Positions 34,151 to 51,056 of a DNA stretch of 64,000 nucleotides are shown here, one piece after another. The notes under the pieces were generated by a model. It did no database searches. It was not told the origin of the DNA and worked only from the letters and a program-made list of their open reading frames with translations. This DNA comes from an uncultured Clostridium sp. GTDB taxonomy: Bacteria; Bacillota; Clostridia; TANB77; CAG-508. The DNA lies in NCBI GenBank assembly GCA_948469315.1, contig CAOKLQ010000003.1:80007-144006 (forward strand). The letters are read 5' to 3'. The stretch's first letter is position 1. Every line of letters begins with the position of its first letter. A program made the position numbers and the translations under genes.

Positions 34151-34369
34151 ATATCATATTAATTATAATACTACAATATCAGTAGTTTGTCAATACAATT
34201 TTTTTCTAAGTTTCAAGATCAAATTTCTAATTTTTATTTAAATAATCCTTATATTTATTTTTCTTCCTTAAAATAGTTTATCTTTATAAATTTTTACTTG
34301 TTCTATCATATGTCCAATATTGCCTTCTCCTGCAAATTGGATTTAGGTCAGTTATTTAGACACATATTT

Positions 34370-35240
34370 TCACACTTTTTTATAAAGATTATGCCGTTTT
34401 TTCATAGTATAATCTTTCTTTTCATTCGGTGTTATATATCCTAAACTACTATGTATTCTTTTGTTATTATACCAACTTTCTATAAATTCAAATATTGCTA
34501 ATCTTGCTTCTTCAAATGTTATGTATCTTCTTTGATTTACTTCTTCTTTCTTTAATATGGCATTGAAGCTTTCCATACTTGCATTATCATATGGATATCC
34601 CTTTTTTACTATATGAATGCTTTATATTTAATGTTTTTAATAACTCTTCATAATCATTTGATGTGTATTGACTTCCTAAATCTGAATGAAATACCATTCC
34701 TTCTTCTATTCCTACATTACATACAGCATTGTTTAATGCTTGTATTACTAAATTTGCTGTCATATGCTTTCCATATGAGTATCCTATTATTTTTAAATCA
34801 TATAAATCCATTACTATTGCTAAATATGTCCATCCTATTTCTTTTGTATAAATATATGTTATATCTCCAACCCATTTTTCCTTTGACTTTATTGCATTCA
34901 AATTTTGTTCTAATAAGTTGGGTTTATTTGTATCATCTACTCTTTTATTTTCAGCATAATTATATTTTTTCACTACTATACTTCGTATTCCTAGTTTTCT
35001 CATCCTTCTTGCTACTCGCTTTTGACTTGTTTTTGTTCCTTTACTTGCTAGTACCTTCTGTATTTTGGGTGATCCATATCTTCTTTTTGATTCAGTATAT
35101 ATTTCCAGTATTTTTTTGTCTAATTCTTTATTATTTTCCTTATATCTGTTTGTTTTGTTATTTTTGTGATAGTAATATACTGAATGATGTATTCCCATAC
35201 ATTTGCATAAAAGTCCTATGCTGTGTTTATCTTTCATCAT
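34370..35240 (-). pseudogene. IS3-family transposase orfB (integrase core), broken by a frameshift in a G-run near 34578
   Basis: 217-aa ORF (..HSDLGSQYTS..) and 68-aa ORF (MESFNAILKKEE..RIHSSLGY) are the two halves of one rve-domain protein. The aaaaaaggg run carries one extra base. A CGG at 34391-34393 in the distal fragment is in frame. Confidence 0.7.
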
Positions 35241-35256
35241 ATCAATAAATTTTATT

Positions 35257-35541
35257 TTATCTTCTATTTTTGTGTGAATATGACCATTGCTTTTTTAATA
35301 TTTCATTTTCTTCTTGTAATCTCATATTTTCTTTTTTTAGTTTTAATAATTCATCATTATTTGTTATTAATCCTGTTTCTGTCTTTACTTTTCCATATTT
35401 TTTTATCCAATTATATATTAACTTTTTTTCTAGGTCATATTCACTTACTAATTCTGCTACTTTTTTCCCTGATTCGTACAAGGCTACTATTGTTTTCTTA
35501 TATTCTTCTGTATAACTGTTATATTGTTTACTCATACACAC
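35257..35541 (-). CDS. IS3-family transposase orfA (HTH plus leucine zipper)
   Basis: 94 aa; HTH region then a heptad Leu/Lys-rich C-terminus; 3' end overlaps orfB. Confidence 0.75.
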   Translation of the reverse strand: MCMSKQYNSYTEEYKKTIVALYESGKKVAELVSEYDLEKKLIYNWIKKYGKVKTETGLITNNDELLKLKKENMRLQEENEILKKQWSYSHKNRR

Positions 35542-35619
35542 TTACCTCTTTTCTGTTTTTATTTTAACATCTTTTTTTGTAAGTGTAAAATTTTGTGTCT
35601 ATATTTCTATTCTAATACC

Positions 35620-35715
35620 ATTTTCACATTCACTAAATGAACTTTTTTCTAAAAATTAAGTACACTTGGTGAACTAAATCTAAAATATTTTATAAAAATC
35701 GAGTACACTCGGTTT
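35620..35715. repeat. partial copy (R0) of the palindromic 16-mer repeat family seen at 40905-41170 and 48580-48760
   Basis: agtacacttggtgaact and aaaatcgagtacactcgg (about 18 nt identical to 41046-41066) abut the IS right end and overlap the stop of the truncated ATPase ORF. Confidence 0.55.
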
Positions 35716-35926
35716 GAATTTCTTCTACATTTACATCATTTTTTTCAATTTTAACTACACCTTTTCCATCGTCAAAAAATATGTCAAGTGCTTCTAAAAT
35801 CGTTGATTTTCCTACATCATTTTTTCCAACAAATACAGTTAAATCATCAAATTTTATTTCTACTTCTTCCCTATATCCTCGAAAGTTTTTTATTTTTACT
35901 GATACAATTTTCATTTTCTTCTCCAT
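35690..35926 (-). pseudogene. N-terminal fragment (78 aa) of an OLD/AAA_15-type ATPase
   Basis: MKIVSVKIKNFRGYREEVEIKFDDLTVFVGKNDVGKSTILEALD is a typical OLD-family or SMC-like ATPase N-terminus with Walker A; the ORF ends inside the R0 repeat, so the rest of the gene is missing. Confidence 0.6.
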
Positions 35927-35934
35927 TCTCTAAA

Positions 35935-36543
35935 TTATAATTTTCTATTTATTTCATCTATCCAACTTTCATCATCACTTTCAAAGTGTTCAACAAACTT
36001 CAATATATTGGTGCTAGAAGTTATATTGTCATCTGTTGATAACTTAGCTACATTTTCCTTCATTTTTTCATAATTACTTCTTTTAATTTTGCTAAATAAT
36101 TCTTTTCTTTGCTCATCTGTAGCTTTATAGTTATCAATGCCAACATACTCCTTTATATACTTACTATTTATAACTTTGCTTTGACTTGTTAATTTTATTT
36201 CAGCAAAATGTGAAAGTATTATTTGCATTGTACATGGATTTCCAAATATTACTATGTCATCTGCTACATCTTCTCCATGAAAGTCATTTATTTTTTGTTT
36301 AATTTCTTTATATTTTTCTGATGGTCCTTTATCTGTATCACAGAATATTAAAACCAAAGAATATGAATCTGATTGATATTTTTCTTGATACCTTGCTATT
36401 ATTGTGTTTATTGATTTTGCATTTACTGTGATAAAATCATATTTGTTGGAAAATATGGCTTTACTTTTTAAAGTCTCAATATAATCTAATTCTTCATATC
36501 CTTCACATATAATGCATATTTTCTTTCCTTTATATTTCCTCAT
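35935..36543 (-). CDS. RloB-like (AbiLii-like) protein
   Basis: 202 aa; N-terminal KKICIICEGYEELDYIETL matches the RloB-like family signature; gene overlaps the upstream AAA ATPase gene by 14 nt. Confidence 0.6.
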   Translation of the reverse strand: MRKYKGKKICIICEGYEELDYIETLKSKAIFSNKYDFITVNAKSINTIIARYQEKYQSDSYSLVLIFCDTDKGPSEKYKEIKQKINDFHGEDVADDIVIFGNPCTMQIILSHFAEIKLTSQSKVINSKYIKEYVGIDNYKATDEQRKELFSKIKRSNYEKMKENVAKLSTDDNITSSTNILKFVEHFESDDESWIDEINRKL

Positions 36544-37780
36544 TATCCACCTCCAATAAGGTAGATATTAAGTCTGGTTCAGGTATTGCTCCAAATTCAC
36601 CTTTAATATATTTTTCTTGTATATTTGATGTATCTCTTACTCCATTTTCTGCATAACTAAATTCTTTTAGCGAATATAAATCTGTTCCATTTTCATCTTT
36701 GTCTGTAAACCATATTTGCTCTTTTCTAAACATTCTCTTGCAGTCTAACAAACTTATATCATGAAGAGTAGCTATTAATTGTGCTTTTTTATTTATTTCA
36801 TTATTAAACATACTGATTATTGCTCTTGTAATTTTAAAATGCAAACTACTATCTAATTCATCAATTACTAATGTTTTGCCTTGTTCAATTGCTTCTATTA
36901 CATAACTTGCAAGAGCTGCAAATTTTCTTGTTCCTAATGAATCAAATATAATACTTGGCACTGCTTGCCCTTTATAAACTGACACAATTTTTATTTGATC
37001 CATAAAGTTTTGATTTTTTAGAATTTTCTCATCTACAACTTTTCCATCTATCTCCACATTTAAGTCTTCAATATACATATAATCTTCCAAATACAAATCG
37101 GCATTTTTAATAAACTCAACAACTTTTTTTGTTTCATCATCTTTATTTTTTAACATTTGTATTGTTTTTGAATTTGGTATTTTATTCATATCTACTATTT
37201 CAATACTATTTGCTATACCTGTTAATATGGTTTTTATTTTTTCTAATATTGGGAATTTTTCAATTTGTACTGTATATATTAAAATATTGTTATTAGAAGC
37301 TATATTTAATACTTTTGCTAATTCTTCATCTTGTGGACATTCATATTTTTCATTAATTGTATCTTTTAAAAATATTAGTTCTTCTTTTTCATTATTATAT
37401 TGGTCTTTAACTATTTGACACATTTTTTCATATATATACATCATTTTTTTATCATCAAATTTATATTCATATAAATACTCTTTGTTATCATATATAAATG
37501 AAATTGCTTCCTCGCAAATATTGCTGTCTGTAAATATATTTGAATCTAAGTGAATTTCCTTATTTAGTAAAGTTCCTTTAATCGCTTTAATACAATTTAT
37601 TAAAGTAGTTTTTCCTGTATTGTTTGGACCATAAATAGCTGTGGATTTCAATATATTTAGGTTATCATTTATATTAGTTACATTTGATGAAAATTTTTTT
37701 GTTCTCATATCTGCTTTTAAACTCATTTCTATAGTATTATTAAAAGCAAAGCAATTATTAAATTTTAAACTTGTTATCAT
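36530..37780 (-). CDS. AAA_21-type ATPase (AbiLi/RloA-like abortive-infection ATPase)
   Basis: 416 aa; Walker A GPNNTGKTT near the N-terminus, Walker B/D-loop LVIDELDSSLH near the C-terminus, and the long insert typical of ABC-like AAA_21 ATPases that pair with RloB-like proteins. Confidence 0.65.
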   Translation of the reverse strand: MITSLKFNNCFAFNNTIEMSLKADMRTKKFSSNVTNINDNLNILKSTAIYGPNNTGKTTLINCIKAIKGTLLNKEIHLDSNIFTDSNICEEAISFIYDNKEYLYEYKFDDKKMMYIYEKMCQIVKDQYNNEKEELIFLKDTINEKYECPQDEELAKVLNIASNNNILIYTVQIEKFPILEKIKTILTGIANSIEIVDMNKIPNSKTIQMLKNKDDETKKVVEFIKNADLYLEDYMYIEDLNVEIDGKVVDEKILKNQNFMDQIKIVSVYKGQAVPSIIFDSLGTRKFAALASYVIEAIEQGKTLVIDELDSSLHFKITRAIISMFNNEINKKAQLIATLHDISLLDCKRMFRKEQIWFTDKDENGTDLYSLKEFSYAENGVRDTSNIQEKYIKGEFGAIPEPDLISTLLEVDNEEI

Positions 37781-37914
37781 AATAAAACCTCCAATTTGTT
37801 ATTAGTATATCATATTTTTATTTTTTATGCAATAATAATGCATAAAAAATATTGTTTATTATATAATATGCCCACTTTCAATTTAAATACACTAATATCT
37901 AAAAAATTGCCGTT

Positions 37915-38128
37915 TTAATTCGTAAATTTTATTCGATTTACGAACTATAACGGCAAAATATTAAAAATACTTACTCTTAAATTTTATATCAAGTATTTAT
38001 ATTTACTTGTCGGAAATCTTCGTAAATACCAAATAATTTACGAAAGTTTCCGACATATTTAATTCCCATATTACTAAAATTAGTGATTTTTCGTAATAAA
38101 GATTTTTGTATTACGAATTTTTCACTTT
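37915..38128. promoter_or_regulatory. array of inverted repeats with TCGTAAAT / ATTTACGA half-sites between the ALDH 3' end and the AAA-ATPase start
   Basis: ttcgtaaatttt-attcg-atttacgaa (37921-37946), tgtcggaaatcttcgtaaat-accaaataa-tttacgaaagtttccgaca (38008-38056, 20-bp arms), tttcgtaataaag..gtattacgaa (38088-38120) and ttttcgtaat (38130). Confidence 0.45.
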
Positions 38129-38158
38129 TTTCGTAATATAACTCTTATAAGTAACTTA

Positions 38159-39675: not shown

Positions 39676-40494
39676 TCATAGTCTTTTATGTGATATTGGG
39701 TCTATTGTAAATGTTTTTCCCATTAAAACATCTCCAATATATTTTTCATTTTTTAGTATTCCCCTTACGGTTGATTCGCACCATTTATCTCCACCTTTTG
39801 GAGTTTTTATTCCTTTAGCTGTTAGTTCTTTTGCTATGGTACTTGATCCTATTCCTTCTACATATCTTTCAAACATATATCTAACAATATTTGCTTCTTC
39901 TTCATTGATTGTTATTTCTTTTGTTTCAAGATTGTAGTTATATCCATAACAACCATTATAGCCAATTAATTCTCCTCTATCTTTCTTCATTTTTAATCCT
40001 AATAGAACATGTGAAGATATATTCTCGCTTTCTTGTTGTGCCATTGCACTTAGTAGTGTTAATACTAGTTCTCCTTGACCTGAACCTGTATTGATATTTT
40101 CTTCTTCAAATAGTATTGCAACATTTTTCTCTTTTAGCATTCTTACATATTTCAAAGTATCTAATGTGTTTCTAGCAAATCTTGATATTGATTTTGTTAG
40201 TATCATATCAATTTTACCTTCCATGCTATCCTGTATCATTTTCATAAAGTTTGTTCTTTTAAAATCTAATGTTCCAGATATTGCTTCATCTGCATATATT
40301 CCAGCAAATTGCCATTCTGATTTGCTATTTATTTTTTCATCATAATACTTTAATTGTGATTGATAACTATTTAATTGTTCTTCACCCGCTGTGCTTACTC
40401 TACAATATGCACATACTCTTAGTCTTTCTTTTATTGTTGTTCCTGTTACTCTGTTGATTCTTCCGTTTGTTTTCTCTATGACTTGAATTTCCAT
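39676..40494 (-). pseudogene. large serine recombinase, C-terminally truncated copy
   Basis: 272 aa about 70% identical to the N-terminal 275 aa of the 574-aa recombinase at 46412-48136 (catalytic CAYCRVST Ser motif, GYNGCYGY); ends at ..IDPISHKRL where the full copy continues into its zinc-ribbon and coiled-coil domains. Confidence 0.7.
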
Positions 40495-40904: not shown

Positions 40905-41300
40905 TTTAATAAGTACACTAAGTGAACTAAAAAAAATATGATTTGAAATCACAAGTTCACTAAGTGTACTTATAAAATTTAGATTTAGTTCACTTGGTGT
41001 ACTTGAAAACTTTTTACTCTTTTCACATTCACTTAGTGAACTTACTTTATGAAAATCGAGTACACTCGGTGAACTTTTGCCTAAAATGAGTGAACTTTTT
41101 TAAATTTTTAGTTCACCATTTTCAATTTTAACGAAGAATAGCGGGTTTGAGCCTGTTCACTCGGTGAATTTTTACATCATATTTGCTTAAAATTTTTGTT
41201 TCTTTATTAACTCTTGAAGGCTTGTCCTTCAATGTGTGTAAGCGATATGTTAATACCGCTTTCCTGCCCTCATTTCTAATGAGGTATTTTGAGTTTTAAT
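40905..41300. repeat. R1: array of palindromic 16-mers (GTWCACT-NR-GTGWAC) plus a conserved ~85-nt block with hairpin
   Basis: Six copies (agtacactaagtgaact, agttcactaagtgtact, agttcacttggtgtact, ttcacttagtgaact, gagtacactcggtgaact, gttcactcggtgaat). The block gcttaaaatttttgtt..cttgaaggcttgtccttcaatgtgt..cgctttcctgcc is about 90% identical to 48783-48865. Confidence 0.7.
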
Positions 41301-41476: not shown

Positions 41477-42865
41477 TTATACTACTCTTATATGTAAATA
41501 TTTTCCATTATCATTTATTCCTTTATTTATATTAATATTTTTATATGTAAATTCATTTTTGTTATTTTCTTTCATTTTTTTTATACATTCAAAAAAATTA
41601 TTATTATTAAATTGTTCTACAAAATCATTTTCGTGTTTATCTGGTACAAAAATAATAGTATACTCTTTTAATTTCTCTTTTCCTTCAAAATATCCTATCA
41701 ATTCAAATAATTCATAAAGTATATTTATTGTCATTTCAGTATTATTTAATGTTTTCATAAGTGGACCTGTATATCTCATTAACTTTATATTATACATATC
41801 ATCTACAAGCTGCCTTTTTTCAATATTATATTTATTTAAAATATAATCAAAATCCATAGTTAACTTTTCAACTTTATTTTCTCCTACTATATCGCAAATT
41901 CTTTCAATAGCTACTATTTCTTTATTTCGGGTTGTTTTTTCACCATAAGTAATTTGTTTAAAGAAATTAAAACAATCCTTTATTCTTTCGTATTTTTCTA
42001 TGTTCATCAAACTTTCATCAACTGCAATTACATCTGCATATGCTAATAACCATAAAATTTGAGGAATCTCGCTTTTTATATCATCAATTTTAGGTAATTC
42101 TGATAGTAATTTTTCATATTCATTTTGTACATATAAATCACTACTTTCAGATGATAAAGATGTTATTAAAGTATGATATTTTATAATTTCTTTTAAAATT
42201 TTTGTAAAATCTTTTAAATTCAATGACATTTTTGACTTGTCAATTCCTATTTCACTCAAAACTTTTGTTACAAATTTAGCACCTAATTTATCATGAAATT
42301 TTATATCTTCTATAACACCAATGTCATGAATTAATGTAAAAACTTTCAACAAAAGTTTTGATTCTTTGTTTAATTTATTATATATATCATGAAGTTCTCT
42401 TATTTGTTTTATATTCTCTTTATTTCCATTAAAGTTTACTAATTCTTTATTATATGCGATATTATAGTTTACAATTTGATATACATATAAACTATGTGCC
42501 ATCCAGCCATTTAATTTATATGTATTTATTCCTCCACGAATTATTTTATTTTCTTGCTTTAAAGTATCACTAATCCTATCAATGTAATTCTCTCCATTCT
42601 CATATTTACTATATAAAATCCATAAATACTTAGAAGATTTTTCGCTTTTTAAAATATTTATAAAATTACATTTTAATACATTAATATCAATATGTACATT
42701 ATATAATAATTCATCTAACTCTTTCGCTTTTTGTTTTTTTATCAAATTACTCTCATCATCTGTTTTAGCTTTTTTCAATTGTATTCCTGTTTCTCTATAA
42801 AACTTATCATAATTAAAATTTAATTGCTTTTCAGTTACATTCTTTATTCCATAAGCCTCTAACAT
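41477..42865 (-). CDS. orphan HD-domain protein of unknown function
   Basis: About 462 aa from MLEAYGIK after a GGAGG RBS; central HD motif (KVFTLIHDIGVIEDIKFHDKLGAKF) and a later LLAYADVIAVDE; no other recognisable domain. Confidence 0.55.
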   Translation of the reverse strand: MLEAYGIKNVTEKQLNFNYDKFYRETGIQLKKAKTDDESNLIKKQKAKELDELLYNVHIDINVLKCNFINILKSEKSSKYLWILYSKYENGENYIDRISDTLKQENKIIRGGINTYKLNGWMAHSLYVYQIVNYNIAYNKELVNFNGNKENIKQIRELHDIYNKLNKESKLLLKVFTLIHDIGVIEDIKFHDKLGAKFVTKVLSEIGIDKSKMSLNLKDFTKILKEIIKYHTLITSLSSESSDLYVQNEYEKLLSELPKIDDIKSEIPQILWLLAYADVIAVDESLMNIEKYERIKDCFNFFKQITYGEKTTRNKEIVAIERICDIVGENKVEKLTMDFDYILNKYNIEKRQLVDDMYNIKLMRYTGPLMKTLNNTEMTINILYELFELIGYFEGKEKLKEYTIIFVPDKHENDFVEQFNNNNFFECIKKMKENNKNEFTYKNININKGINDNGKYLHIRVV

Positions 42866-43331
42866 AATTTCTTTCCTCCGTATTAAAATAAGTATTTGTT
42901 CACATTTTATCACACATTAATCAAAAAATAAAGCATATAACAAATCAAATTATTACATACTTTACATTTTAAGTTTTACCTCTAAACATTCATATATTTT
43001 AATAAACAATTATACTACTCCGCACACCATATCAACTTCTATCGTTACCCTAATTTTATTATTTTCTACTCGTTTAATCTTATTTTTGCCTTTTCTCTCA
43101 AAACTAATAAAATCCTCAAAAGCAGTAAACTCAACTATTGTATCGTATCTTTTAGATATAGCACCGAGCAACACTCCACGTGCGTGGTGGTCACTCCGTT
43201 GAATAGTAGCCCTCAATGTGGTATCCTGACGGTTGATAGGTCAAAAGTAAAAGTTCTATATTCTCTTTTATTAAGTTTCTTATAGTATCAAATCTTAAAA
43301 TACTTAATGTTGACATTTTCAATTTACTAGT

Positions 43332-45168: not shown

Positions 45169-46125
45169 CTAACCATTTAAAAAGTTCATAATTAAATCTA
45201 TTATAACATCTTTTTCTTTTGGATTTGATTCAGCAGTTAATAAAGTTAATGCTGTTAAAGTATTATTATCAATAACTTGTTTTCCATCTTTTATCAAAAT
45301 ATCATAATAGTTTAAAAAATATATAAATAGTGTTGCAGCAATTCTTTTGTTTCCATCTATGAAAACATGATTCTTAACTATTAAATATAAAAAATTTGCC
45401 GCTTTCTCTTCAATACTTTTATAAATATCTTGTCCATCAAAACTTTGATAAATATTTCCAATTATTGATTCTAACCCTTTGTCTCGTTCAATAGCAAATA
45501 TATCACTCTCTTCGTTGAATCTTAATTTTGTTATAATTTTAATACATTCAGTATATGATATTTTTCTATTATCTATATTTCCTTCAACTTTTTTTAATGT
45601 TTTATGGTCATAATCATCTAACAAATCTAATGCCTTTGAATATTCCCCAATAACTTTTAGTATTCCATTTGCATCTTTATTTTCTAATTTCTCATCTATC
45701 CTATTTGCTATATCTATTAATTTTATAGTTTTTTCTAAATATTCTAATCTTTTCTGATTTACTGCATATCCTTTTAATATATATTCTTTTAAAACTTTAT
45801 TCGCCCATCTTCTGAATATAATACCCTTCTCTGATTTAACTCTGTAACCAACACTTAAAATCATATCTAAATTATAATATTCAATATTTCTTGTAACTTC
45901 TCTTTTTCCTTCTTTTTGAACTGTCGCAAAATTTGCGACAGTTGGTATATCTTTTAATTCTTCTTTTAAAGCATTATTTATATGTTTTCCAATTGTTTTT
46001 ATATCTCTATGAAATAATTTAGATAATTGTTGTCTATTTAGCCACACAGTTTCATCTTTCATACTTACTTCTAGTTTTATTTCTCCATCTTCAAATAAAA
46101 TAATTTCGTTTTTCTTTTTTTCCAT
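45169..46125 (-). CDS. RhuM-family / Fic-domain protein
   Basis: 318 aa; RhuM-type N-terminal region (..FEDGEIKLEVSMKDETVWLNRQQLSKLF..) and Fic motif HVFIDGNKRIA. Confidence 0.75.
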   Translation of the reverse strand: MEKKKNEIILFEDGEIKLEVSMKDETVWLNRQQLSKLFHRDIKTIGKHINNALKEELKDIPTVANFATVQKEGKREVTRNIEYYNLDMILSVGYRVKSEKGIIFRRWANKVLKEYILKGYAVNQKRLEYLEKTIKLIDIANRIDEKLENKDANGILKVIGEYSKALDLLDDYDHKTLKKVEGNIDNRKISYTECIKIITKLRFNEESDIFAIERDKGLESIIGNIYQSFDGQDIYKSIEEKAANFLYLIVKNHVFIDGNKRIAATLFIYFLNYYDILIKDGKQVIDNNTLTALTLLTAESNPKEKDVIIDLIMNFLNG

Positions 46126-46411: not shown

Positions 46412-48136
46412 CTACCCATCACCGCAACACATTCCACGTGGCTCACACATAGGCTGTAGATAGTTTTTGCTTACCTCGTATGATGACTGTTGATTTTTTT
46501 GTTCTTTTTCATCATCTTTGCACTTGATTTCGTTTCCAGATTTTAGGATAAATGTTATTACTCTTGGATTTGTTTCTCCATTACTTCCTTTTTCTCCTAT
46601 TATAACTTTTTCTATCATTAGTTCAAAAACATCTTTATCAAATTCTGGCATAATTTCGTTGTCTTTAAACAATGTTTTAAACTTGTTTAATCCTTGATTT
46701 AAACTTATTGAATCTTCTAATTCTATTTGCAAATGCTCTTGTTCTTTTTCTATATTATTTATTTTGTTTTGTAGTTTTGCTTTCTTTTCTTGCAGAGTTT
46801 CTAATGTTATTGTTCCATTTAAGTTTAAATCAATTAGCTTGTCTATCTTTTCTTTTAATATTTGTTTTTCTTCCTCCAGTCTTTTAATAGAACTTTCGTT
46901 ACTCTCTTCTTGTATAATTTCTTCTATTTCGTTTAAGAATGTTTGGATTAGTTCTTTATTGTTATTACATAGTAGTCTGTAACTTTCTGTAAATGCTTCT
47001 TCTATAATACTTTCTTTCATAGCTTTGCAATGTGGACAATTTTCTTTTCCATGTTTTACAAACTCCATACAATGCCAAACTGTAATACTATTTTTTGTTC
47101 CAGAATGCCAGTTTCTCCTTGTTAATAAACTACCACAAAATCCACAATATAATCTACTACTAAAAGGATATTTTCTACTAAAGTTGCCTTTTCTTCTTCC
47201 AGAGCCTCTTACTCCTCCTCGTTTTTGTAAAATTTCTTGTACTTGATTAAACATTCTTTCAGAGATGATTGGCTCATGATGTTCTTGTATATAGTATTGA
47301 TTTTCTTCTCCCATATTGACTACTCTTCTATGTGATATTGGATCTGTTGTATATGTTTTTCCTTGTAAGACATCTCCTTTGTATTTTTCGTTTTTCAAGA
47401 TACCTCTTATTGTTGATTCGTGCCACTTTTTCTTTCCTGTTGGAGTTTTGTATTTCATATTTGTTAGTTCTTTTGCTATTCTTGTACAGCCTACTCCTTG
47501 GCAGTATCTTTCAAAGATATATCTTACTATTTCTGCTTCTTCATAATTGATTGAGATTTCTTTTGTGTCTTTATCATATACATATCCTAAACATCCGTTA
47601 TATCCAATTAATTCTCCTCTTTTTTGTTTCATTTGTAATCCTAGCTTTACATGAGAAGATATATTTTCGCTTTCTTGTTGTGCCATTGCACTTAATACTG
47701 TTAGCATGATTTCTCCTGATATTTCTAAAGTATTAATTTTTTCTTCTTCAAAATAAATAGCAATTCCCTTCTCTTTTAGTAGTCTTACATATTTTAAAGT
47801 ATCTACTGTATTTCTTCCAAATCTTGATATTGATTTTGTAATTATCATATCAAATTTGCCCATTGTTGCATCTTGCATCATTTTCATAAAACCATCTCTT
47901 TTATAGTCTAATGTTCCTGTTATTCCTTCATCTGCATAAATACCAACATATTTCCAATTACTATTGCTTTTGATTTTTTCTTCATAATACTTTAATTGAG
48001 AATTGTAACTGTTTATTTGTTCTTCTTTTTCTGTACTTACTCTTGCATAAGCACACACCTTTAAATTACCATTTATTTCTTCTCCTGTTGTTCTATTAAT
48101 TCGACATTTTTTCTTCTCTATAACTTGTACTTTCAA
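46412..48136 (-). CDS. large serine recombinase (intact)
   Basis: 574 aa; resolvase catalytic domain (CAYARVST), recombinase domain, Cys4 zinc ribbon (CGFCG..WHC..C..C) and a long coiled coil; the last 8 codons overlap the 24-bp att-like core. Confidence 0.85.
   Translation of the reverse strand: MKVQVIEKKKCRINRTTGEEINGNLKVCAYARVSTEKEEQINSYNSQLKYYEEKIKSNSNWKYVGIYADEGITGTLDYKRDGFMKMMQDATMGKFDMIITKSISRFGRNTVDTLKYVRLLKEKGIAIYFEEEKINTLEISGEIMLTVLSAMAQQESENISSHVKLGLQMKQKRGELIGYNGCLGYVYDKDTKEISINYEEAEIVRYIFERYCQGVGCTRIAKELTNMKYKTPTGKKKWHESTIRGILKNEKYKGDVLQGKTYTTDPISHRRVVNMGEENQYYIQEHHEPIISERMFNQVQEILQKRGGVRGSGRRKGNFSRKYPFSSRLYCGFCGSLLTRRNWHSGTKNSITVWHCMEFVKHGKENCPHCKAMKESIIEEAFTESYRLLCNNNKELIQTFLNEIEEIIQEESNESSIKRLEEEKQILKEKIDKLIDLNLNGTITLETLQEKKAKLQNKINNIEKEQEHLQIELEDSISLNQGLNKFKTLFKDNEIMPEFDKDVFELMIEKVIIGEKGSNGETNPRVITFILKSGNEIKCKDDEKEQKNQQSSYEVSKNYLQPMCEPRGMCCGDG
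46420..46443. repeat. 24-bp direct repeat (att-like core) shared with the rumA 3' end
   Basis: caccgcaacacattccacgtggct is identical at 46420-46443 and 54515-54538, in the same orientation, each inside the last codons of a minus-strand gene (serine recombinase; rumA). Confidence 0.8.
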
Positions 48137-48539: not shown

Positions 48540-48880
48540 CTTTTTTCTATTTTGGCTATTAAAGTGTTGATTTTTAAATAAGTACACTAAGTGAACTTGT
48601 ATAAAATTTTTTTAAATCTCTAGTTCACTTGGTGTACTTTTCTTTTAAATTTCAATCAAATTCAAGTACACTTGGTGAACTAATTATTGTATTTTTATAA
48701 AATTTAGTACATTTAGTGAACTTTCGCACTCTAATAGGCATTTTTTAGTGGTTTATTGGGTGAATTTCTGTATCAAATCTGCTTAAAATTTTTGTTCTTT
48801 TATTAATTCTTGAAGGCTTGTCCTTCAATGTGTATAGGCGATGTGTGAACACTCGCTTTCCTGCCTTTAGTTTAACTAAT
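48540..48880. repeat. R2: second array of palindromic 16-mers plus the conserved ~85-nt block
   Basis: agtacactaagtgaact, agttcacttggtgtact, agtacacttggtgaact, agtacatttagtgaact, then the conserved block (48783-48865) ending ..cgctttcctgcc. Confidence 0.7.
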
Positions 48881-48889
48881 TTTAATCAC

Positions 48890-50884
48890 TTATTGTTTAT
48901 TTCTTATATTATAATATTTTAATTGTTTTTCCATAAAAAGATCATCTAAAATTACTATTTTACTTTGAGTACATTTTGCTAAATATTCTATATCTTTTTC
49001 AAGTTGTTCATCGAATTTTATTGGACATATTGCTCCAATAATACCTATTCTCTGTCTATCTTGTGATGCCACCAACATTTGTTGTATCATCTCTCTCGCT
49101 TCTTTACTAGAACGAGTTAAATTACAACTACTTTTAGCTATACCCACAAATTCAAATTGTTTATTTTTATAAGTAACTTTGAAATTAATATCTCCAAATT
49201 CGTGACCATGGTGTGGACCTGGTCTATATCCTTCATATGTTGTAAATAACTTAAGTATACACATATTCTTATCATCACAATTAATACATTTTTCTTTAGT
49301 AGGATATGTACACTTTTCCTTAATTTTTTTCAAATTACTGTCTAATATTTCTTTTTCATGCGTATCTATTTCAGTTGATAGAATAGCTTCAAATTCTTTT
49401 ATTTCTGACAATTTTAATAAACATCCATTTGATTTTTCTAATATTTGTAAATTGTTGTTAATAATAGAAATACATCCATCAAATTGTATTTTTAAATTTT
49501 CATATAAAAAATCGATAATATCTGTATATAACTTTGAATTTGGTATTAAATAGATGTTAATATTTTCTATGTTACTAACATTTATTTTATGCCCTTCTTC
49601 ACATTCTAGATAATTTAATGTGCTTCCACAATTTGAACAAATAATAGTTTTATTAGCTGTCATTTTAATATCGTAACTTCCACAATTACATTTTGGAACA
49701 CAATATGAATCATTACATTCATTGCAATTAATAAAAATCTTATTCATAAAGTATTTCGATAATTTTGAATAATCTAATTTTGTTTGTATAATTGAATTAT
49801 AGTTTTTATCTTTTGAAAAACATATTATCTTAAATATAATTTCTTCTATAATCTTTTTTTGCTCTGTTGTATAATTAGTCCACTTTTCATTACTCATAAT
49901 ATTTTTAGATTTAAATATTTCAAATTCCGTTTCATGACTTGCAATATATTTTATAATTTCTCTAATAGTAGTTATACTCCATTTTCTAAAAGATGTTGCC
50001 GCCATATTTTTAGTAAGATGAATTTTGCCTTTTGAATTATTTATTCCTAAAGTGTTTATTACATCTTCAACATTAATTTCAAGTGTTTCACTAGTTGTAG
50101 TATATGGTTCTAATTGTTTCTTTAGTTCTTCCTTTTCATCAAGCTTAGAATCTGAAATCATTATTTTTTCCGCTTCTTTTTCATTTGCATTGAGATTTAT
50201 ACCTGAAACTTTTTTTCTTCTATCTCCAAATACTTTTTTAACCAATTCTTTAGTTAATACTATAGGATATAATTCCGCTTCATAAATCTGTGAAATTGCT
50301 AAACTTAATTTTTTTATTACTCTTTCATCACAATTTTTAATTGCAACAAAATTATCTTCTATACTAATCCATACAAAAGTTTCTTTCAATTCATATATAT
50401 ATGTAGGCTCTTCCTTTTCATTAATATATGAATACTTTTTTAAGTAATAAAAAGAGTACTCTGTTAAATTTTCTTCTTTTAAATATTCACTATTATTATA
50501 TATTATATTTTTTATTGCAGGTTGTTCATCTTCATTATTAGTAATCTCTTTCAATTTTTCTTGTATTTTAGTACATACTTGATTTGTAGATAATTTTTTA
50601 CTACTTTTAAAAGAAAAGATTGAAAAACCAGGCTTTAGTCCATATCTATATTCTTCATAACATGTATCAATTTCTTCTTTCGTTATATTACTTGATTCTA
50701 TAATTATTGTAAGTTGTGCTCTAGATAACTTATAAATTGCTTTACTGTCTTTTGGTGTAGTTTTAGTAACATTATATATTTTACTAATAACATCCTCTTC
50801 ATCATATTTACTTAATATTAATTTACATAGTCCCTCTAACCTAATTAAGTCTAACTTTGTTTTTAATTGCTTTGTTAATTTCAT
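48890..50884 (-). CDS. large Cys-rich hypothetical protein (about 664 aa)
   Basis: Likely start MKLTKQLK (GGGGGA RBS); the ORF track extends to 50959. Central CxxC..CxC..CxxC cluster, second Cys cluster, C-terminal region ..PGPHHGHEFGDINFKV..FEFVGIAKSS..ILDD with a possible nuclease-like D..E..K arrangement; no confident family. Confidence 0.5.
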   Translation of the reverse strand: MKLTKQLKTKLDLIRLEGLCKLILSKYDEEDVISKIYNVTKTTPKDSKAIYKLSRAQLTIIIESSNITKEEIDTCYEEYRYGLKPGFSIFSFKSSKKLSTNQVCTKIQEKLKEITNNEDEQPAIKNIIYNNSEYLKEENLTEYSFYYLKKYSYINEKEEPTYIYELKETFVWISIEDNFVAIKNCDERVIKKLSLAISQIYEAELYPIVLTKELVKKVFGDRRKKVSGINLNANEKEAEKIMISDSKLDEKEELKKQLEPYTTTSETLEINVEDVINTLGINNSKGKIHLTKNMAATSFRKWSITTIREIIKYIASHETEFEIFKSKNIMSNEKWTNYTTEQKKIIEEIIFKIICFSKDKNYNSIIQTKLDYSKLSKYFMNKIFINCNECNDSYCVPKCNCGSYDIKMTANKTIICSNCGSTLNYLECEEGHKINVSNIENINIYLIPNSKLYTDIIDFLYENLKIQFDGCISIINNNLQILEKSNGCLLKLSEIKEFEAILSTEIDTHEKEILDSNLKKIKEKCTYPTKEKCINCDDKNMCILKLFTTYEGYRPGPHHGHEFGDINFKVTYKNKQFEFVGIAKSSCNLTRSSKEAREMIQQMLVASQDRQRIGIIGAICPIKFDEQLEKDIEYLAKCTQSKIVILDDLFMEKQLKYYNIRNKQ

Positions 50885-51056
50885 AAAAATCCCCCACTTT
50901 TTTAACATCCATAGTATATCATATATCGACATTTTTCTCAACATTTCCTTTATTAGCATATTTTCAAAAAAACAAAAGTTCTGTTTTTTGTCAAAAACTA
51001 TTGATTTTTTGTATATTTTTGTTATAATAAATCATACTAGAAAGGATGTTTGATAT

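Follow-up and report, generated by a model that had tools for sequence, protein, structure and literature searches.

A stretch of 64,000 nucleotides (nt) from an uncultured gut Clostridium sp. (contig CAOKLQ010000003.1 of assembly GCA_948469315.1, positions 80,007 to 144,006; hereafter the window), with a G+C content of about 26% throughout, carries two adjacent minus-strand genes. The first encodes an AbiLi-like ABC ATPase of 416 amino acids (aa) (36530-37780), and the second an AbiLii/RloB-like protein of 202 aa with a predicted Toprim fold (35935-36543). Judging from the sequence and by analogy with characterised systems, we consider it likely that 35935-37780 encodes an anti-phage module of the AbiL/RloAB type, whose two genes are intact and probably expressed, and that the ATPase gene stump beside it is a separate feature. 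The pair is a divergent but ordinary member of this known class and does not represent a new kind of system. An earlier note on this DNA, written from its letters and translations, had described an AAA_21 ATPase paired with an RloB-like protein and followed by a truncated 78-aa open reading frame (ORF; 35690-35926, minus strand). The three ORFs, their coordinates and the 14-nt overlap between the first two are as it gave them, the peptides it quoted (GPNNTGKTT, LVIDELDSSLH, KKICIICEGYEELDYIETL and KIKNFRGY...VFVGKNDVGKSTILEALD) are all present, and hidden Markov model (HMM), profile, fold and synteny comparisons agree with its assignment of the pair to the AbiL/RloAB type. The HMM and PADLOC searches it had suggested returned PF13304, PF13175 and both AbiLi and AbiLii, but not PF13707 for the 202-aa protein itself.

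The first gene product was identified as a Rad50/SMC-type, AAA_21 ABC ATPase by Pfam, PADLOC, motifs and fold. It matched Pfam AAA_21 (PF13304) end to end (profile positions 2-304 of 304) at 76.6 bits against a cut-off of 27, and PADLOC AbiLi (PDLC02335) over residues 1-405 (E 1.2e-64, 216.5 bits). Walker A (YGPNNTGKT, residues 50-58), a signature-like SLGTRK (281-286), the Walker B/D-loop (LVIDELDSSLHF, 304-315) and the H-loop (TLHD, 338-341) are intact, and these motifs together with the gathering score place the protein among the AAA_21 ABC ATPases. All four are kept across 72 aligned family members, extracted from related loci and 29-99% identical, in the forms YGPNNxGKT, S-x-GT-x-K, DELDSSxHF and TxHD. 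The family comprises more than 3000 clusters at 90% identity, mostly from gut Clostridia and Lachnospiraceae. The AlphaFold (AF2) model of the ATPase has a confident core and a poorly defined insertion at residues 228-282, and it gave 104 fold matches at E<=1e-3, which include Rad50/SMC heads, PtuA, GajA and the retron Eco7, Ec78 and Eco8 complexes. Sequence searches of the PDB with the ATPase found nothing.

A fold class common to Rad50, SMC and RecF, weak matches of the ATPase to ABC_tran and to NCBIfam transporter models, and the presence of a Toprim domain in RecR as well could together be taken to indicate a housekeeping ABC ATPase system, either a transporter ATPase or a RecF/RecR-like repair pair. 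The earlier note had set its proposal against just such a reading, and the comparison favours the note. Transporter models scored about 20 bits where their cut-offs exceed 200: equivalog models gave about 15-23 bits against cut-offs of about 190-430, the best NCBIfam transporter match reached 22.6 bits against 261, and no match was obtained at equivalog level. The folds matched were those of Rad50/SMC and defence ATPases, and no transporter domain occurred among the 50 fold matches listed. The pair has no membrane partner, its neighbours are not permeases, and its genomic location differs among close relatives. We regard a housekeeping role as effectively refuted.

The second gene product was assigned by PADLOC, family, profile and fold comparisons, and the predicted RloB/AbiLii identity is secure at the level of family, profile and fold only. 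PADLOC AbiLii (PDLC02337) matched the 202-aa protein at E 1.2e-8 (33.8 bits). Among 70 diverse full-length members of its family, AbiLii matches were weak but consistent (57 members, best 6e-14), Pfam RloB (PF13707) matched 24 at E<=0.01 (best 3.1e-10), and OLD-like_TOPRIM matched three. When the family profile A1 was compared by hhalign with two proteins that themselves match PF13707, it aligned with the RloB protein of a C. beijerinckii plasmid (PF13707, 150.8 bits) at a probability of 83.5% and E 8e-6, and with ORF56 of the Lactococcus prophage proPhi7 (PF13707, 89.4 bits) at 94.6% and E 7e-8 over 163 columns. The claim that the 202-aa protein belongs to RloB/AbiLii is thus upheld by its relatives and by PADLOC, but not by a PF13707 match of its own. 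This family too is large: clustering at 90% identity gives at least 982 clusters, a level of 50% leaves 333 representatives, and its hosts are mostly gut Clostridia, Lachnospiraceae and relatives.

We examined the 202-aa protein for the acidic residues that bind metal in Toprim nucleases. Its motifs are CEGYEE (E14, E17), FCDTD (D69, D71) and GNPCTMQIILSHF (residues 102-114), and in the alignments with confirmed RloB proteins CEGxxE is shared, CDTD aligns with FDVD/FDYD and NPCTMQIILSHF aligns with NPCFELWYLMHF. In the 70-member alignment, E14, G15, E17 and Y139 never vary and D69 reaches at least 90% conservation, a level that D71 attains in alignment A2 of 12 closer members. In the AF2 model (pLDDT 96), E14/E17 and D69/D71 lie at the ends of the predicted strands E7-13 and E63-69. 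RloB has been assigned to the Toprim superfamily with a catalytic E and DxD (PMC12065111), and the modelled positions of the acidic residues in the 202-aa protein appear to fit this pattern, in which a Glu follows strand 1 and a DxD follows strand 3. A Foldseek search of the viral library BFVD with the model returned a single match at E<=1e-3, to A0A8S5LTA7, annotated as 'RloB-like protein' (E 1.6e-7, TM 0.64/0.61). Among the PDB matches listed, the highest TM (0.44-0.46) was to the C-terminal part of OLD from B. pseudomallei (6nk8), which includes its Toprim, with an E of about 0.01 that is not significant; lumazine synthase and sugar-binding proteins also ranked in the search and were set aside as generic alpha/beta similarity of no significance. 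Sequence searches of the PDB with this protein found nothing. Neither the protein nor its family matched AriB or DUF4435, so it does not qualify as an effector of the PARIS type.

The ATPase stop and the partner start overlap by 14 nt (36530-36543, minus strand), as seen in both the ORF list and the sequence. Both genes have a GGAGG ribosome-binding site (RBS) 7-8 nt before the ATG in our reading of the sequence, that of the partner falling within the 3' end of the ATPase gene. The overlap, which is identical in close relatives and gives way to a short gap in more distant ones, implies that translation of the two genes would be coupled. Upstream of the pair lies a leader (37781-37890, minus strand) with the GGAGG site at 37788-37792 and one promoter-like sequence found by consensus scan, TTTAAA-18-TATAAT (37887->37858); over the region as a whole the scan was not above chance. 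In most close relatives the leader is conserved together with the pair. About seven copies of TTCGTAA/TTACGAA were also seen upstream of the ATPase gene at 37880-38140, including palindromes at 37880-37983 and 38008-38055. Part of this region is co-conserved with the cassette in close relatives, and the copies could be an operator array. Rfam models searched over the whole window found only tRNAs and a tmRNA.

The pairing of the two genes is obligate. A genome scan with an alignment of 12 closer members of the partner family gave 80 loci in named genomes, and an ATPase homologue lies directly upstream of the partner in 78 of them, the other two being cut by contig ends. In all 78 scorable loci the genes are adjacent, co-directional and inherited together, which is the arrangement by which PADLOC recognises AbiL, and the identities of ATPase and partner drop in parallel across loci, from 98/98% to about 47/47%. 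Purifying selection acts on both genes: where dS is unsaturated, dN/dS is 0.04-0.15 for the ATPase and 0.05-0.12 for the partner. At one locus (L092:3819-5070) the ATPase gene is split into ORFs of 307 aa and 93 aa beside an intact partner, within a ligA-folD insertion that is otherwise identical; either the ATPase gene has become a pseudogene or the assembly is wrong here, a point of relevance to whether the partner alone is toxic.

The distribution of the pair is patchy, and its contexts are often mobile DNA or defence islands. Among close relatives, DNA homology covers the two genes and 0-400 nt upstream only, and both ends are ragged. The pair lies beside NTPase_I-T and DUF218 genes in one relative and between ligA and folD in another; elsewhere it occupies a tyrosine-integrase element, and in L018 it is accompanied by a second AbiLi-like ATPase, an OLD-type ATPase and a serine recombinase. 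That second ATPase gene of L018 (L018:2818-4498; PADLOC AbiLi 1.8e-91) stands directly upstream of the AbiL-like pair and is followed by a gene for a 128-aa protein without a family match, which may make it another ATPase-effector variant. In the window, the pair sits in a mosaic with two serine-recombinase genes, a Fic/RhuM gene of the PADLOC candidate family PDC-S23 and a MazF-like gene, near tRNA-Leu/His/Gln; its immediate neighbours are an aldehyde dehydrogenase gene, the ATPase stump and an IS3 element. These varied contexts and ragged boundaries point to an accessory defence or toxin-antitoxin cassette, not a housekeeping function.

The same contexts bear on whether the pair could be a restriction-modification (R-M) accessory that works only together with R-M enzymes, the role of RloA/RloB at Campylobacter type I R-M loci. 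The name RloB derives from hsd loci (PMC10440598, PMC12065111), and in the tyrosine-integrase element mentioned above only about 600 nt, with two small ORFs, separate the pair from a gene of the MmeI R-M type. However, no R-M genes, whether methyltransferase or restriction genes, flank the pair in the window, only the ATPase and its partner are conserved over the 78 loci, and flanking homology ends within 0-400 nt. We judge this role to be very improbable.

Comparison with characterised systems places the pair closest to AbiL and RloAB. AbiL (L. lactis pND861; PADLOC/DefenseFinder) likewise consists of two co-directional genes for an AAA_21/Rad50-like ATPase and then an RloB/Toprim-like protein, overlapping or tightly coupled and located on mobile DNA. 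Annotated analogues include an 'ATP-binding protein + RloB family protein' pair with a 13-nt overlap on the C. beijerinckii plasmid and ORF55/56 of the Lactococcus prophage proPhi7, both annotated as 'abortive phage resistance protein'. The window pair differs from AbiL in that its ATPase is only 22-30% identical to the annotated lactococcal or plasmid analogues, in the compactness of its partner (202 aa), which lies under the Pfam RloB threshold and matches about half of the AbiLii profile, and in its hosts, uncultured gut Clostridia from which the module is known here by sequence. RloA/RloB (Campylobacter type I R-M loci; PF13707) shows the same pairing of an ATPase with RloB, and the three motifs CEGxxE, DxD and NPCxxxxxLxHF are common to the window partner and confirmed RloB proteins in profile alignments; unlike RloA/RloB, the window pair lies outside any hsd locus and its partner scores below the PF13707 threshold.

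Among more distant systems, PARIS combines an AriA ABC ATPase with AriB, a DUF4435 Toprim nuclease (class 4 OLD-like), and so resembles the window pair in its split ATPase and Toprim effector and, by analogy, in a toxin-antitoxin-like logic that the two would share. The effector of the window is of the RloB type and not DUF4435, and the substrate of PARIS is tRNA-Lys. Of the PARIS models in PADLOC, the window ATPase matched only the generic AAA_21-derived 'AriA' model. AbiL falls in the same AAA15/21 tree as PARIS (PMC11464382) and has been placed with PARIS and MADS3-4 among the systems that combine an ABC ATPase with Toprim (PMC11464382; PMC13064643). OLD and Gabija GajA contain both catalytic modules, ATPase and Toprim, but in a single chain, whereas the window encodes separate polypeptides and no helicase partner. 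From a Clostridium, the TOPRIM_OLD(D44):AAA(D29) pair of C. algidicarnis joins a Toprim toxin of the RloB node to an AAA ATPase that acts as its antitoxin, roles that were validated by toxicity neutralisation (Ernits et al. 2023, PMC10440598). It is the nearest experimentally tested analogue of the logic proposed here, set beside the window pair by description only, and no phage phenotype was shown for it (PMC10440598).

From PARIS (AriA/AriB) and the validated Clostridium AAA:RloB-type pair, we infer a defence function in which the ATPase would serve as sensor and the RloB-like protein as nuclease effector. The ATPase would keep the Toprim effector bound and silent in the uninfected cell until it sensed a cue derived from phage. 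Released or activated by this cue, the effector might then cleave nucleic acid either by nicking DNA, as in OLD/GajA, or by cutting tRNA or other RNA, as in AriB. Such cleavage would halt the production of phage while sacrificing the infected cell. Stoichiometric co-production of the two proteins would fit the order of their genes and the 14-nt overlap.

Several observations weigh against the assignment of the pair as a PARIS-like anti-phage module. The 202-aa partner gave no match to Pfam RloB (PF13707; gathering threshold 31.5 bits) even at E<=10, and its AbiLii match spans only profile positions 26-112 of 170. No solved structure matched the partner significantly in the Foldseek search of the PDB, and therefore its proposed nuclease activity rests on motif conservation. 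The model of the ATPase is only moderately confident (pLDDT 71.7), and AriA was absent among the 50 fold matches listed for it. The PARIS-like scheme is itself an analogy: the mechanism of AbiL is unknown, and whether AbiL and RloAB work like PARIS has been described as an open question (PMC13064643). Finally, some copies of the family stand alone among housekeeping genes, which fits a selfish addiction module equally well.

We therefore weighed whether the pair is mainly such an addiction cassette, in which the Toprim protein would be the toxin and the ATPase its antitoxin, and which would stabilise its host islands or segments with no dedicated sensing of phage. The related Clostridium AAA:RloB-type pair acts as a toxin-antitoxin system in E. 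coli, and a sister AAA system produced no hits when it was screened with phages (both PMC10440598). The many unrelated sites of the pair, its ragged boundaries and its occasional isolation among housekeeping genes are also consistent with addiction, as is the gene order, since a neutraliser gene placed first and overlapping the toxin gene is typical of toxin-antitoxin systems. On the other side, it was an anti-phage phenotype that led to the discovery of the founding AbiL (Deng 1999, cited in PMC13064643), relatives of the pair often lie within defence islands, and in PARIS toxin-antitoxin behaviour and defence are one mechanism. On balance we consider a mainly selfish cassette unlikely and favour the AbiL/RloAB-type defence module.

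Directly downstream of the pair, the 78-aa ORF matched Pfam AAA_15 (PF13175) at 92.5 bits over profile positions 1-75 of 374, and keeps only the N-terminal strand and a Walker A, GKNDVGKST. Its start is most likely the internal ATG at 35914 (MKIVSV...), because the AAA_15 profile begins there, public calls give 74 aa, and the upstream 'ATGGAG' doubles as an RBS. From this ATG, the remnant of the ATPase gene comprises 67 homologous codons (35714-35914, minus strand), and the last seven codons, TECTRFL*, with the stop, come from a palindromic repeat copy at 35696-35717, as the earlier note had observed in placing the end of the ORF inside such a repeat. The stump is collinear through ...NVEEIQ with longer versions in L087 (112 aa) and L088 (132 aa) and then diverges into the repeat, so placing the breakpoint at about 35713. 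No other piece of the parent gene was found in the window.

The sequence suggests that the parent was a stand-alone AAA_15 ATPase of about 515 aa, a separate gene that once followed the pair. The homologues obtained with the 78-aa fragment as query were all short pieces. With the query P0124, 73 complete ORFs (median 515 aa) were found in plasmids and metagenomes, none of them adjoining an AbiL pair. The closest intact relative, L098 (L098:4001-5548; 515 aa), is 80% identical over 132 aa, and its neighbours are ordinary genes. When aligned with an OLD-like_TOPRIM-bearing E. coli protein, L098 matched only over residues 1-398, which is the ATPase part, and the PDB match of the 515-aa family to OLD is restricted to the same part. 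The C-terminal region of about 110 aa carries a conserved EYIR[HN]QIHHPEN block and no E...DxD signature. The stump thus has the AAA_15 N-terminus of the OLD family, and a C-terminal Toprim was not detected in the closest intact relatives by alignment and motif inspection. The earlier description of a truncated OLD-like ATPase is therefore accurate as 'AAA_15 ATPase stump', but 'OLD-like' is too specific. The EYIR[HN]QIHHPEN block (L098 and L099-L177) has an Rx4H, HEPN-like pattern. Two other candidate parents were rejected: a 616-aa AAA_15/Old-type gene after the L018 pair is only 42% identical over 43 residues, and an E. coli 608-aa protein with ATPase and OLD-like_TOPRIM domains was superseded by the much closer 515-aa relatives, which lack the Toprim.

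The gene is intact in no sampled genome that carries the pair. Relatives retain varied 5' lengths (none, about 10, 20 or 46 nt, 112 or 132 codons), and the cut point differs in every sampled retaining lineage, at about 3, 7, 16, 67, 112 and 132 codons. The gene had been under strong purifying selection. Between the window and L088 versions there are 16 synonymous and 3 nonsynonymous changes. So few nonsynonymous changes suggest that the truncations were recent and independent, or that partial copies were transferred from intact donors. The varied cut points could likewise reflect either repeated recent loss through incompatibility or transfer of partial cassettes.

The repeat in which the stump ends is a 17-nt imperfect palindrome, AGTWCAC-TNRG-GTGWACT, which occurs in clusters of three to six copies spaced about 33-45 nt apart; AGTACACTNRGTGAACT was matched 21 times in the repeat scan against 0.61 expected by chance. 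Clusters lie at 35627-35717 (a partial cluster of three copies, the outermost of which, at 35696-35717, makes the junction with the stump), 40912-41170 and 48581-48722, and the 18-mer AAATCGAGTACACTCGGT at 35696-35713 is identical to 41053-41070 inside the second of these. Each of the two full clusters lies between a conserved sequence of about 115 nt (41155-41268; 48751-48865) and a small ORF that is followed by a large serine-recombinase gene, and this repeat-recombinase module recurs in the closest related genomes. A test for RNA structure in the conserved 'X' sequence beside the clusters found one compensatory pair and a covariation term of -0.35, which does not support a structured RNA. 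The repeats may be either recombination sites or operators.

An IS3-family element (34331-35626, minus strand), delimited by Pfam domains (HTH_Tnp_1, HTH_21, rve, rve_2) and by alignment of its imperfect TG...CA terminal inverted repeats, lies beyond the partial cluster. Its orfA spans 35257-35541 and its orfB is split (34587-35240 / 34370-34576) where the frame shifts by 1 nt in a poly-A near 34580; when this shift is allowed for, orfB gives the canonical KKGYPYDNASMESFN, and the frameshift could instead be a homopolymer assembly error. The flanks of the element, TCC and CAT, show no target-site duplication, a sign of a possible rearrangement adjacent to it, and its junction is the same in the independent sample L006. 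The earlier note held that an older defence gene had been cut by insertion of the element or by recombination. A rearrangement at the module repeat is borne out, but we rejected IS3 insertion as the direct cause, the breakpoint at about 35713 being inside a repeat copy and 87 nt from the IS end at 35626. The sequence indicates that the parent gene was probably deleted from about codon 68 onward by a rearrangement ending in a palindromic repeat of the serine-recombinase-associated module. The stump would thereby have been joined to a partial copy of this module, with the IS3 element later sitting, now or formerly, 87 nt away. The element is a neighbour of the AbiL-like module and not part of it.

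Two further ideas are speculative, and we give them low probability: that the pair and the downstream AAA_15 ATPase of about 515 aa once formed a three-gene unit, and that the 17-nt palindrome clusters by the serine-recombinase genes are the sites at which a cassette-accreting system recombines and so shuffles defence genes next to tRNA genes. The modules resemble tandem accretion of recombinase islands beside tRNA-Leu/His/Gln. Their serine-recombinase paralogues (39676-40494 and 46412-48136) are 76% identical in nucleotides over 815 nt. The first is cut short at 272 aa, with Resolvase and part of the Recombinase domain, and the second is full length (574 aa) with a zinc ribbon. Two ORFs without Pfam or PADLOC matches, at 41477-42913 (478 aa) and 48890-50959 (689 aa), each end just upstream of a module of conserved sequence and repeat cluster. 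The PDC-S23 gene (45169-46125), which encodes a 318-aa RhuM/Fic-domain protein matching its PADLOC model at 2e-124, lies in a recombinase-bounded segment adjoining that of the AbiL-like pair.

These results show that a large unnamed family, most public copies of which are nameless or called 'hypothetical protein', is an AbiL/RloAB-type ATPase-Toprim module missed by standard Pfam annotation, and recognising it would improve defence annotation for gut anaerobes. As a compact pair (416 + 202 aa) with a confidently modelled RloB-type effector, it would also offer a test case for whether the PARIS mechanism extends to all systems that pair an ABC ATPase with Toprim.

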